Part shown: positions 6,568-43,035 of the stretch, in pieces
Position numbering within the stretch: position 1 is the stretch's first letter
Layout: every line of letters starts with the position of its first letter
Source of the DNA: Escherichia coli
GTDB lineage: Bacteria; Pseudomonadota; Gammaproteobacteria; Enterobacterales; Enterobacteriaceae
Assembly: GCF_001677475.2 (NCBI RefSeq)
Contig: NZ_CP015229.1
DNA: 64,000 bases
Reading direction: 5' to 3' (one strand)
The notes under the pieces: model-generated
Database searches by the model: none
Told to the model about the DNA's origin: nothing
What the model saw: only the letters and a program-made list of their open reading frames with translations
Made by a program: the position numbers and the translations under genes

Positions 6568-6963
6568 ATGTGTGAAGGATATGTTGAAAAACCACTCTAC
6601 TTGTTAATCGCCGAATGGATGATGGCTGAAAATCGGTGGGTGATAGCAAGAGAGATCTCTATTCATTTCGATATTGAACACAGCAAGGCGGTTAATACCC
6701 TGACTTATATTCTGTCGGAAGTCACAGAAATAAGCTGCGAAGTTAAGATGATCCCTAATAAGCTGGAAGGGCGGGGATGCCAGTGTCAGCGACTGGTTAA
6801 AGTGGTCGATATCGATGAGCACATTTACGCGCGCCTGCGCAATAACAGTCGGGAAAAATTAGTCGGCGTAAGAAAGACGCCGCGTATTCCTGCCGTTCCG
6901 CTCACGGAACTTAACCGCGAGCAGAAGTGGCAGATGATGTTGTCAAAGAGTATGCGTCGTTAA
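6568..6963 (+). CDS. caiF: Carnitine operon transcriptional activator CaiF
   Basis: ORF 6463..6963; internal ATG at 6568 gives 131 aa starting MCEGYVEKPLYLLIAEWMMAENRW, matching CaiF. Confidence 0.88.
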   Translation: MCEGYVEKPLYLLIAEWMMAENRWVIAREISIHFDIEHSKAVNTLTYILSEVTEISCEVKMIPNKLEGRGCQCQRLVKVVDIDEHIYARLRNNSREKLVGVRKTPRIPAVPLTELNREQKWQMMLSKSMRR

Positions 6964-12717: not shown

Positions 12718-14235
<1,518 letters not shown>

Positions 14236-14469
14236 TTAATTCCACTGTGAAAACGAATATTTATTTTGCGTTCCCGTTTGTTTTATTTTTGTTAACATTT
14301 AATATAATTATTATTAACCTCGTGGACGCGTTAATGGCTAACTCATAATGGGTATTCAATAAGCTGTATTCTGTGATTGGTGTCACATTTTTGTTTCGGG
14401 TGAATAGAGGATGTTTTTCCGTTAATTTTTGTTATTAATCAGTTTGTTATGCTCTTTTGTGAGTAAAAA

Positions 14470-14625
14470 AATAGCATCTGACTTTCAATATTGGTGATCT
14501 ATAAAACAATATTGAAAATTTCTTTTTGCTACGCCATTTTTTCAATATTGGTGAGGGACTTAACAATATTGAAAGTTGGATTTATCTGCGTGTGACATTT
14601 TCAATATTGGTGATTAAAGTTTTAT
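14470..14625. promoter_or_regulatory. Divergent caiT / fixA control region with repeated TTTCAATATTGGTGA and AACAATATTGAAA motifs
   Basis: Three direct copies of TTTCAATATTGGTGA (about 14483, 14540, 14598) and two of AACAATATTGAAA (about 14505, 14562) read in sequence; the location fits known CaiF/CRP-controlled divergent promoters. Confidence 0.6.
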
Positions 14626-14704
14626 TTCCAAATTAAAGGGCGTGATATCTGTAATTAACACCACCGATATGAACGACGTTTCCTTCATGATTTCTGGAGA
14701 TGCA

Positions 14705-15475
14705 ATGAAGATTATTACTTGCTATAAGTGCGTGCCTGATGAACAGGATATTGCGGTCAATAATGCTGATGGTTCATTAGACTTCAGCAAAGCCGATGCC
14801 AAAATAAGCCAATACGATCTCAACGCTATTGAAGCGGCTTGCCAGCTAAAGCAACAGGCAGCAGAGGCGCAGGTGACAGCCTTAAGTGTGGGCGGTAAAG
14901 CCCTGACCAACGCCAAAGGGCGTAAAGATGTGCTATCGCGCGGCCCGGATGAACTGATTGTGGTGATTGATGACCAGTTCGAGCAGGCACTGCCGCAACA
15001 AACGGCGAGCGCACTGGCTGCAGCCGCCCAGAAAGCAGGATTTGATCTGATCCTCTGTGGCGATGGTTCTTCCGACCTTTATGCCCAGCAGGTTGGTCTG
15101 CTGGTGGGCGAAATCCTCAATATTCCGGCAGTTAACGGCGTCAGCAAAATTATCTCCCTGACGGCAGATACCCTCACCGTTGAGCGCGAACTGGAAGATG
15201 AAACCGAAACCTTAAGCATTCCGCTGCCTGCGGTTGTTGCTGTTTCCACTGATATCAACTCCCCACAAATTCCTTCGATGAAAGCCATTCTCGGCGCGGC
15301 GAAAAAGCCCGTCCAGGTATGGTCGGCGGCGGATATCGGTTTTAACGCAGAGGCAGCCTGGTCAGAACAACAGGTTGCCGCGCCGAAACAGCGCGAGCGT
15401 CAGCGCATCGTGATTGAAGGCGACGGCGAAGAACAGATCGCCGCATTTGCTGAAAATCTTCGCAAAGTCATTTAA
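14705..15475 (+). CDS. fixA: Electron transfer flavoprotein beta-subunit homolog FixA
   Basis: ORF 14642..15475; internal ATG gives 256 aa [27 protein letters not shown]. Confidence 0.92.

Positions 15476-40996: not shown

Positions 40997-43035
<2,039 letters not shown>

Follow-up and report, generated by a model that had tools for sequence, protein, structure and literature searches.

The divergent caiTABCDE and fixABCX genes of Escherichia coli are separated by an AT-rich intergenic region of 472 bp (31% GC compared with 52.5% for the window, that is, the whole stretch of 64,000 nucleotides analysed here), in which the 15-mer TTTCAATATTGGTGA occurs three times on the plus strand. This raises the question of what the array is, and whether its three copies are parts of one and the same kind of control element. 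A preliminary description had read it as three direct repeats spaced by roughly 57 bp, interleaved with a partially complementary motif and corresponding to CaiF/CRP activation sites. All three copies are indeed exact, AACAATATTGAAA is interleaved with them twice (14505–14517 and 14562–14574), and the intergenic placement is borne out. The start-to-start distances, however, are 57 bp for the first pair and 59 bp for the second, and the end coordinate of 14612 was one base short. While “three direct repeats” is true of the exact copies, a closer description is a pair of perfect inverted repeats (11-bp arms, 13-bp centres) together with a single arm that has no partner.

The genes concerned are those of the K-12 locus (Table 1). 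CaiT and FixA are 100% identical to their K-12 counterparts, compared with 99.6% and 99.2% identity to those of E. albertii, and the caiT DNA matches K-12 at 1497 of 1515 positions. CaiF matches the Pfam family PF07180 (CaiF_GrlA) with 28.4 bits at a gathering cut-off of 25, and its only relative with a solved structure is GrlA (PDB 4KT5; 4KT5_C, E = 1e-3). By genomic SELEX, caiT, fixA and caiF are known CRP targets (PMC3105977).

Table 1. Features of the caiT–fixA control region and associated genes (window coordinates).
Feature	Position	Strand	Remarks
caiF	6568–6963	+	specific activator reading the repeat arms; open reading frame, product one residue off K-12 CaiF
caiT	12718–14232	−	first gene of caiTABCDE; open reading frame; protein identical to K-12 CaiT
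cai transcription start (presumed)	14338	−	14627 minus 289 bp; puts CRP site 1 at −41.5
CRP site 1 (CRP1)	14372–14387		perfect core TGTGATTGGTGTCACA, 10/10, centre 14379.5; class II position for cai
CaiF operator F1	14483–14517		arms TTTCAATATTG 14483–14493 and CAATATTGAAA 14507–14517; contains copy 1 (14483–14497)
CRP-like core nested in F1 (CRP site 3)	14493–14508		GGTGATCTATAAAACA, 7/10, centre 14500.5
CaiF operator F2	14540–14574		arms 14540–14550 and 14564–14574; contains copy 2 (14540–14554)
CRP-like core nested in F2 (CRP site 2)	14550–14565		GGTGAGGGACTTAACA, 8/10, centre 14557.5
fix −35 GTGACA	14592–14597	+	promoter scan; PMC3946193 Table 1
repeat copy 3	14599–14613	+	exact 15-mer; left arm plus GGTGA, without right arm; −28 to −14 of fix
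fix −10 TAAAGT	14615–14620	+	promoter scan; PMC3946193
conserved block downstream of copy 3	14619–14651	+	GTTTTATTT 14619–14627, 15 bp, TGATATCTG 14643–14651
fix transcription start	14627	+	K-12 42325
fixA	14705–15475	+	first gene of fixABCX; ATG at 14705; protein identical to K-12 FixA

The published CaiF operators F1 and F2 have copies 1 and 2 as their left arms, as follows from the sequence together with the literature. According to the passages quoted in later papers, CaiF binds to two sites, F1 and F2, with the consensus 5'-TTTCAATATTG-N13-CAATATTGAAA-3' (Buchet et al. 1999 via PMC12083890, PMC3680233). Both operators of the window, labelled here by their order on the plus strand, agree with this consensus without a mismatch, and in sequence, locus and neighbouring genes they are identical to F1 and F2 of K-12 (Buchet et al. 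1999, Mol Microbiol 34:562), a strain in which all five arms recur at identical positions. The full pattern occurs twice in the window, with zero occurrences expected. Allowing up to three mismatches, the 15-mer has nine matches in the window, five of which are the five arms of the array, while 100 shuffled sequences averaged 1.6 matches and had six at most, none reaching nine. At up to two mismatches, the 64-kb window holds no further copies, such as an autoregulatory site at caiF.

A motif search of the window and of 1.08 Mb flanking 55 cai–fix loci likewise yielded matches confined to caiT–fixA intergenic regions, with 140 matches of the 14-mer inside these regions and none in the flanks. 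That the motif is missing from the flanks, and from the window outside the array, argues against a mobile or REP-type element as the source of the repeats. A structured RNA is opposed by the failure of intergenic region and leader to match any known RNA family (Rfam; sole match 18 bits at a threshold of 75); moreover, with both transcription starts downstream of it, the array is transcribed from neither promoter. Both origins are extremely improbable. Instead, the array is very probably the CaiF/CRP operator of the divergent caiTABCDE–fixABCX control region. The assignment of the repeats to CaiF/CRP activation sites holds for copies 1 and 2, with their exact consensus and nested CRP-like cores, and needs qualifying for copy 3, which does not belong to either described CaiF operator, is without a right arm and lies in the fix promoter spacer. 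This control region is already known; re-finding it from raw sequence is not new biology.

The tail of the repeat accounts for its length. In a scan for CRP cores (TGTGA-N6-TCACA, ten core positions, threshold 7/10), GGTGA proved to be the left pentamer of a nested CRP-like core, GGTGA-N6-[A/T]AACA, on the dyad of the palindrome; the CRP half-site nested at every CaiF arm is what lengthens the repeat from 11 bp to 15 bp. With such a core at the dyad of both palindromes, the 35-bp units are composite CaiF-CRP-CaiF sites.

Positions relative to the two promoters can be assigned from the fix start. The fixABCX promoter is listed as GTGACA-17-TAAAGT (PMC3946193 Table 1) and the fixA 5'UTR as K-12 42325–42403, comprising 79 nt (PMC4448311 Table 10). 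As the fixA ATG at 42403 corresponds to window position 14705 without indels in between, the fix start is placed at 14627, with the nested CRP-like cores centred at −126.5 (F1) and −69.5 (F2). In the 1998 work of Buchet et al., CRP is said to have bound three sites in vitro, located at −41.5 of cai and at −69.5 and −126.5 of fix, with the two starts reportedly 289 bp apart. We take these to be CRP sites 1 to 3 of Table 1, and with the 289 bp and the −41.5 of that work the presumed cai start falls at 14338. The reported values fit the sequence exactly, with the fix 5'UTR listing as an independent cross-check, and the placing of the three sites is the same here; the GGTGA of copy 3 is not among them. 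On the minus strand, the cai −10 reads CATTAT (14345–14350 in plus-strand coordinates), and the CaiF operators are found at −162 and −219 of cai. CRP activates from −41.5 in the class II arrangement and from about −61.5, −71.5 and so on in the class I arrangement. The cai site fits class II, the fix site at −69.5 deviates by 2 bp from the canonical −71.5, and that at −126.5 is far upstream.

On this arrangement a mechanism may be proposed, in which F1 and F2 would be occupied jointly by effector-bound CaiF and cAMP-CRP. The −69.5 unit would help to bring RNA polymerase to fix in a class-I-like manner, while CRP at −41.5 would drive cai directly, the array acting on it from a distance (−162 and −219). 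The preliminary description had gone further, suggesting from the regular phasing cooperative binding or DNA bending that drives both promoters; in its full form, a single cooperative, DNA-bending CaiF/CRP complex on three units phased at 57–59 bp would do so. CRP is an established DNA-bending protein, the location of the operators relative to cai demands action at a distance, and the spacing of units is constrained across genera (59–61 bp to the lone arm, 55–59 bp between palindromes). A 50-bp segment overlapping the fix start, reportedly required for cai transcription in the 1998 work of Buchet et al., would fit a copy 3 engaged in one such complex if it covers −28 to −14. However, 57 and 59 bp amount to 5.4 and 5.6 helical turns, and adjacent units therefore lie on roughly opposite faces of the DNA, with only F1 and copy 3 sharing a face (116 bp, 11.05 turns). 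Furthermore, cai, fix and caiF are retained by genera with anything from 0 to 3 units, and a fixed complex of three is therefore not required. A phased complex of this kind appears doubtful.

Copy 3 differs from the other two. It fills 15 of the 17 bp of the spacer (14598–14614) between GTGACA and TAAAGT, and a right arm, even a decayed one, is absent: at the partner position, 14623–14633 reads TATTTCCAAAT, with 7 of 11 positions mismatched, and the lone arms of other genera show 5–8 mismatches there. Without a right arm, copy 3 falls outside the palindromic operator class, of which it shares the left arm only. The accessible literature speaks, in the passages quoted, of two CaiF sites only (PMC12083890, PMC3680233); copies 1 and 2 show no difference from that description of K-12 F1/F2, and copy 3 lies outside it. 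The literature covered, with the work of Buchet et al. represented by what later papers quote of it, mentions neither a third CaiF site nor the promoter names fixAp/caiTp. Among the parts of the array, only the third, partnerless copy, which is retained in many enterobacterial genera, appears to be unreported.

Within Escherichia (11 sequences), none of the 67 arm positions varies, compared with 15 of 64 positions elsewhere inside the array (Fisher p = 8e-6); copy 3 is invariant, as are both arms of F1 and of F2. Between CRP1 and F1, 63 of 95 positions vary among the same sequences. This bears on the possibility that copy 3 is a neutral relic of a unit duplication with a decayed right arm. The unit copy number of 0–3 among genera, as if 57–59-bp units duplicate and get deleted, and the occurrence of two lone modules in tandem in Budvicia would be in line with such an origin. 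Against it stand the invariance of the lone arm in Escherichia and its conservation of at least 95% at 14 positions over approximately 20 genera, while neighbouring spacers vary; the lone arm also occurs without any full palindrome, and is, therefore, not derived from one. A relic is as improbable as a mobile element or an RNA, and the conservation data effectively refute all three.

The cross-genus set comprised 56 distinct caiT–fixA intergenic regions from about 20 genera, with 29 representative genomes in an ungapped anchored comparison. Coding full palindromes as F and lone arms as L, the architectures are FFL (28 regions), L (9), FFFL (8), FL (7), FLL (2), LL (1) and F (1). In 55 of the 56 regions a lone arm is the element nearest to fixA, following 0–3 full palindromes, and its positions 2–15 are those conserved to at least 95%. 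Between the last palindrome and the lone arm the distance is exactly 59 bp in 40 of 45 cases, and it is only this spacing that is tightly fixed, full palindromes being 55–59 bp apart depending on the genus. caiF and the motif co-occur across loci, the cai loci of Shewanella and Ferrimonas being without either in the DNA examined. Co-variation between arm and CaiF is uninformative, the consensus of the arm hardly differing from one genus to the next.

Downstream of the lone arm, conservation changes with the clade. Conservation of TAAAGT, in the form TAnnGT, is limited to the Escherichia/Salmonella/Citrobacter/Phytobacter clade, and in the O157:H7 strain Z903 the hexamer has become TGAAGT, with the −11 A lost. 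Outside the Escherichia/Salmonella/Citrobacter clade, the lone arm is accompanied by two conserved elements, GT(T/A)TTATTT and, 30 bp downstream, TGnTA; the latter is unchanged, and always at one ungapped distance from the arm, in each of the 29 representative genomes. A module of approximately 60 bp, TTCAATATTGGTGA-N5-GTWTTATTT-N15-TGnTA, is present in all caiF-bearing Enterobacterales genomes examined but one. In Edwardsiella, Hafnia, Serratia and Leminorella it is located 264–349 bp upstream of fixA, with no conserved open reading frame hidden in between. Since the fix −35 and −10 are conserved only in the Escherichia/Salmonella/Citrobacter clade, the ancestral geometry may differ from that of E. 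coli.

Tentatively, the lone arm may represent an ancestral fix promoter core that responds to CaiF and is universal, to which palindromic CaiF-CRP-CaiF units (0–3 copies) were added in individual lineages; we consider this conceivable, though on balance the less probable course. If true, CaiF would act at a single asymmetric arm in or beside the core promoter, like GrlA at LEE1, and the lone arm could correspond to the cis element close to the fix start, so far unexplained, that cai transcription reportedly requires.

What, then, reads copy 3? Its 15/15-bp identity with an operator arm, its invariance and its presence in essentially all caiF-carrying Enterobacterales mark it as putatively functional, and, judged from these sequence data, it is in all likelihood a protein-binding element. 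Most likely, it serves as a third, promoter-proximal CaiF contact, a putative assignment which we favour with some reserve. CaiF on this spacer arm would tune or license the fix core promoter, with an effect of either sign. Every arm includes CAATATTG, a perfect palindrome of 8 bp, and the centres of paired arms lie 24 bp from each other; the arms may therefore be recognised individually and not as the two close halves of a single dimer site. G12, within the GGTGA, is present in 100% of the lone arms as against 72% of the paired left arms, and this greater strictness is a hint that something besides or instead of CaiF reads copy 3.

This hint leads to CRP. Copy 3 might not be a CaiF site at all, having instead been kept as a core-promoter or CRP sequence, possibly as a weak CRP site of an alternative, more deeply conserved promoter. 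GGTGA-N6-T(T/A)TTA (14609–14624, centre 14616.5) would then occupy −41.5 of that promoter, whose extended −10 would be the invariant TGnTA at 14643–14647 and whose start would fall near 14658, in a galP1-like class II arrangement with the upstream TTCAATATTG flanking CRP as in F1 and F2. The fixed spacing of TGnTA in 29 of 29 representative genomes, the exact 41.5 bp between 14616.5 and the start predicted from it, the complete conservation of GGTGA in lone arms, and the clade-specific nature of TAAAGT and GTGACA, including the loss of the −11 A in the O157:H7 strain, are all consistent with this reading. However, the documented E. coli fix start is 14627, placing the centre of the core at −10.5; the right pentamer agrees with TCACA at only 2 of 5 positions, which leaves the core at 6/10 and below the scan threshold; the hexamer after TGn is without a conserved T at its last position; and the 11-mer preceding GGTGA is a CaiF arm, a fact left unexplained unless CaiF binds too. 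A CRP or core-promoter role in place of CaiF is therefore judged unlikely, and CaiF remains the preferred reader of copy 3.

A further explanation would assign CaiF and CRP mainly an anti-silencing role, in which they occupy the 130-bp AT-rich stretch and displace H-NS from two promoters that are in themselves competent for RNA polymerase, with copy 3 extending the H-NS-free zone over the fix promoter. The low GC content of the intergenic region would suit H-NS. The caiT–fixA spacer is bound by RpoD holoenzyme alone, with H-NS binding flagged there (PMC3946193), and H-NS represses carnitine metabolism (PMC2131755); both reports fit, as does the fact that the homologue GrlA works in the H-NS-silenced LEE. 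On the other hand, the exact conservation of the arms and the fixed spacing exceed what simple H-NS occlusion needs. Anti-silencing as the main function is rather improbable, and specific contacts of CaiF, including the one proposed at copy 3, are preferred.

As originally worded, the finding of three repeats matters little beyond a sanity check of the sequence scan. The arm of copy 3 is a modest new lead: its conservation equals that of the known operators, and no other piece of the array is conserved as widely. L-carnitine biosensors have been built on the fix promoter and CaiF (PMC12083890). Given this use, a third CaiF-type element between −35 and −10 would be relevant to the engineering of the promoter.

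Among known systems, the malEp–malKp region offers a likeness in layout for the array as a whole. There, MalT and CRP occupy interleaved sites between divergent promoters and co-activate both, and cai–fix likewise combines a pathway-specific activator with CRP in an array between divergent promoters. The two differ in that MalT belongs to another activator family, that the asymmetric MalT boxes are not nested around the CRP sites, and that malEp–malKp has no activator site in a promoter spacer.

For copy 3, a parallel is found in GrlA, a member of the same family PF07180, which, according to what is quoted of the original study, acts at the LEE1 P1 promoter of EHEC on a target that lacks dyad symmetry and is located between −35 and −10 (Islam et al. 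2011 via PMC4730234, PMC3130263). The spacer position and the partnerless target are like those of copy 3, the parallel being one of position only: in the 278 bp upstream of ler, the best match to a CaiF-type arm has 3 of 11 mismatches, a score equalled or bettered by 487 of 500 shuffles, and LEE1, unlike cai–fix, is without upstream palindromic operators or nested CRP sites. Activators of the MerR and GrlA style compensate for over-long spacers (19 bp for MerR, 18 bp for LEE1 P1; PMC4730234), the latter promoter reading TTGACA-TTTAATGATAATGTATTT-TACACA with its 18-bp spacer. Copy 3 shares with these systems the target between −35 and −10, whereas the over-long spacer is absent from fix, where the spacer has the optimal 17 bp. 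Within the CaiF/GrlA family, a partnerless arm in the fix core promoter would offer a simple explanation for action at single asymmetric sites.

The region between caiT and fixA spans 472 bp and has a GC content of 31%, compared with 52.5% for the whole window. The flanking genes encode CaiT and FixA proteins that are 100% identical to those of E. coli K-12; at the DNA level, caiT matches K-12 at 1497/1515 positions, and across the intergenic region identity is 98% with K-12 and no higher than 98.7% with any of the collection's complete E. coli genomes. The window thus belongs to an E. coli-type genome and not to E. albertii. Within it, the 15-mer TTTCAATATTGGTGA occurs in three exact copies (copies 1, 2 and 3) with start-to-start distances of 57 and 59 bp, interleaved with two partial complements (AACAATATTGAAA). 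Exact matching confirms this pattern as put forward in the preliminary description, whose end coordinate (14612) was one base too short. With up to three mismatches, the 15-mer is matched nine times in the window, and five of these matches belong to the array (shuffled mean 1.6, maximum 6). A repeat finder returned two perfect inverted repeats, each with 11-bp arms 13 bp apart, followed by one partnerless arm; the array is better described as two inverted repeats—designated F1 and F2 by their order along the plus strand—plus one unpaired arm.

Features of the cai–fix control region and associated genes (window positions)
Feature	Position	Strand	Description
caiF	6568-6963		PF07180 (CaiF/GrlA) protein
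caiT	12718..14232	minus	left flank of array
cai start	14338		presumed, 14627 - 289
CRP site 1	14372-14387		perfect core TGTGATTGGTGTCACA; centre 14379.5, -41.5 of cai
CRP site 1-to-F1 segment	14388-14482		
F1	14483-14517		CaiF operator
Copy 1	14483-14497	plus	TTTCAATATTGGTGA
CRP-like core on F1 dyad	14493-14508		GGTGATCTATAAAACA; 7/10 core matches; centre -126.5 of fix
Partial complement	14505-14517		AACAATATTGAAA
F2	14540-14574		CaiF operator
Copy 2	14540-14554	plus	TTTCAATATTGGTGA
CRP-like core on F2 dyad	14550-14565		GGTGAGGGACTTAACA; 8/10 core matches; centre -69.5 of fix
Partial complement	14562-14574		AACAATATTGAAA
fix -35	14592-14597	plus	GTGACA
Copy 3	14599-14613	plus	TTTCAATATTGGTGA; -28 to -14 of fix
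fix -10	14615-14620	plus	TAAAGT
fix start	14627		
Conserved downstream block	14619-14704		
fixA ATG	14705		right flank of array

The CaiF site is described as an 11-bp perfect inverted repeat with a 13-bp separation, 5'-TTTCAATATTG-N13-CAATATTGAAA-3', in section 3.2 of PMC12083890 and in the discussion of PMC3680233, both citing Buchet et al. 1999. Both window palindromes match this consensus without a single mismatch, and the same five arms are present in K-12. Copies 1 and 2 belong to the published CaiF operators; their earlier identification as CaiF/CRP sites stands, while copy 3 coincides with no described site. Genomic SELEX recovers caiT, fixA and caiF, which are listed as known CRP targets. 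In 1998, Buchet et al. reportedly described a distance of 289 bp between the starts of cai and fix, with one perfect CRP motif at -41.5 of cai and two more CRP sites at -69.5 and -126.5 of fix; these four figures agree exactly with the window sequence. The latter two CRP-like cores coincide with the F2 and F1 dyads; the GGTGA that ends the 15-mer is therefore the left pentamer of a CRP core, which makes every 35-bp unit a composite CaiF–CRP–CaiF site. The pentamers of CRP site 1 are nearly invariant among Escherichia (one CGTGA variant), as expected of a real CRP site, with the central 6 bp free to vary (TTGGTG, TTGGTA, TTGTTG, GTTAGT, AAATAT, others); in Edwardsiella and Leminorella, the equivalent is (T/C)GTGATCTTAATCAAA.

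The fixA 5'UTR is annotated at K-12 positions 42325-42403 (PMC4448311, Table 10), which sets the fix start at 14627, because the ATG at K-12 42403 corresponds to 14705 and no indels lie between. The fixABCX promoter, GTGACA-17-TAAAGT (PMC3946193), was the sole plus-strand promoter-like site in a promoter scan. Copy 3 lies within this documented core promoter, occupying 15 of the 17 bp between -35 and -10. A right arm for copy 3 was not found (7/11 mismatches at the partner position), nor do the accessible papers mention a third CaiF element. Given its 15-bp identity with the operator arms in ~20 genera, copy 3 is probably read by the same protein(s), most simply by CaiF. Each arm holds an 8-bp perfect palindrome (CAATATTG), and a distance of 24 bp (2.3 turns), within which the CRP core lies, separates paired arms; one arm on its own could thus plausibly suffice for binding.

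From copy 3 to the fixA ATG, only 6/91 positions vary in Escherichia. The downstream block contains GT(T/A)TTATTT and, 15 bp on, TGnTA; given the documented start, the block is for the most part transcribed as leader. TGnTA, which is invariant in 29 genomes of ~20 genera and always lies the same number of bases from the lone arm, without gaps, looks like an extended -10 with a start near 14658. In E. coli O157:H7 Z903 (locus L083), TAAAGT is changed to TGAAGT at the equivalent of 14616, so that the normally critical -11 A is gone; fix is then either less strongly expressed in this lineage or served by a further -10 besides TAAAGT. An attractive though less likely alternative is that copy 3 belongs to a CRP class II promoter that uses TGnTA: GGTGA-N6-TTTTA, centred at 14616.5, lies 41.5 bp upstream of the predicted start, and TGnTA is universal whereas TAAAGT, its -11 A lost in that O157:H7 strain, and GTGACA are clade-specific. 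However, the documented E. coli fix start is 14627, and the right pentamer of this CRP candidate matches at two of five positions.

All five arms are under strong purifying selection: among 11 Escherichia sequences, including E. albertii, E. whittamii and cryptic clades, 0/67 arm positions are variable versus 15/64 remaining positions inside the array (Fisher p = 8e-6). Between CRP site 1 and F1, 63/95 positions vary, a hypervariable segment with conserved sequence on both sides; relaxed constraint or inter-lineage recombination could account for this. In E. coli SFE8 (NZ_CP051219.1; locus L086, 2740-2760), an IS26 end (GGCACTGTTGCAAA) lies ~11 bp upstream of F1 (~window 14472), followed by resistance-associated genes (bleO, Tn3 remnant); this insertion separates the cai promoter and CRP site 1 from the CaiF array and fix, amounting to a natural operator deletion.

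A CaiT scan of species-representative genomes yielded 80 cai loci, from which 56 distinct enterobacterial-type caiT-fixA intergenic regions were analysed. Read toward fixA (F, full palindrome; L, lone arm), their architectures are FFL (28; Escherichia, Salmonella, Citrobacter, Pseudocitrobacter, Phytobacter, Intestinirhabdus, two Providencia), FFFL (8; Proteus), FL (7; Atlantibacter, Yokenella, Pluralibacter, Trabulsiella, two further Enterobacteriaceae), L (9; Edwardsiella, Hafnia, Serratia, Leminorella, Limnobaculum), FLL (2; two Providencia, right arm decayed), LL (1; Budvicia) and F (1; Entomohabitans). The lone arm is the last element toward fixA in 55/56 regions, 59 bp from the last palindrome in 40/45 cases and 60–61 bp otherwise; palindromes are spaced by 55–59 bp. 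Conservation is at least 95% at lone-arm positions 2–15, with the first G of GGTGA present in 100% of lone arms versus 72% of paired left arms, and an anchored ungapped comparison places the lone arm within a ~60-bp conserved module, TTCAATATTGGTGA-N5-GT(T/A)TTATTT-N15-TGnTA. In a tentative reading, to which we give somewhat less than even weight, the fix promoter would have the lone arm as its ancestral and universal CaiF-responsive core, and the palindromic units would be lineage-specific additions.

Budvicia aquatica (L048, intergenic ~352-405) carries two tandem complete lone modules (TTTCAATATTGGTGA-N6-TAT-T(G/A)TTTT), 27 bp apart, without a palindromic unit. In Leminorella (L022) and Limnobaculum (L043/L051), a perfect right-arm-type CAATATTGAAA is found ~34 bp before the fixA start, just 5' of the ribosome-binding site and separated from the lone left arm by >230 bp.

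At up to one mismatch, the 14-mer has 140 matches inside these intergenic regions versus none in 1.08 Mb of flanking DNA. Conservation, this exclusive location and the lack of an Rfam match led us to reject a neutral relic, a mobile element or an RNA. caiF is present in every enterobacterial locus of sufficient length. CaiT homologues outside Enterobacterales (L056-L081; Campylobacter, Shewanella, Ferrimonas, Desulfovibrio, Malaciobacter) share 68–74% identity; in the Shewanella and Ferrimonas loci examined, neither caiF within 10 kb nor a CaiF-type motif was detected. Carnitine genes there must be controlled differently.

As a working model, F1 and F2 would be co-occupied by effector-bound CaiF and cAMP-CRP, the unit at -69.5 would aid polymerase recruitment to fix, and CaiF on the spacer arm would license or tune the fix core promoter, the effect of copy 3 being either activating or limiting. 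cai would be activated directly by CRP at -41.5, in dependence on the array at a distance (-162, -219). The phased CaiF/CRP complex, with cooperative binding or DNA bending, that was initially envisaged is unsupported; constrained unit spacing does argue for some architectural requirement, but 57 and 59 bp correspond to 5.4 and 5.6 helical turns, therefore neighbouring units face roughly opposite sides, and unit number ranges from 0 to 3 among genera. A possible anti-H-NS action of CaiF/CRP would be compatible with the AT-richness of the caiT-fixA region, which is flagged for H-NS binding and is bound by RpoD holoenzyme alone.

The array is none other than the CaiF/CRP control region of E. coli; the finding is therefore already known. 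For copy 3, the closest analogue is the LEE1 P1 promoter acted on by GrlA, a CaiF homologue and the sole CaiF relative with a solved structure. GrlA reportedly acts within the LEE1 P1 spacer, which is 18 bp long, at a target without dyad symmetry. Copy 3 departs from such MerR/GrlA-style spacer activation in two features, an arm-like GrlA target and an over-long spacer: the LEE1 promoter of O157:H7 Sakai (TTGACA-TTTAATGATAATGTATTT-TACACA) holds no CaiF-type arm beyond chance, and the fix spacer has the optimal 17 bp. The likeness between copy 3 and the GrlA target is, therefore, one of position only.
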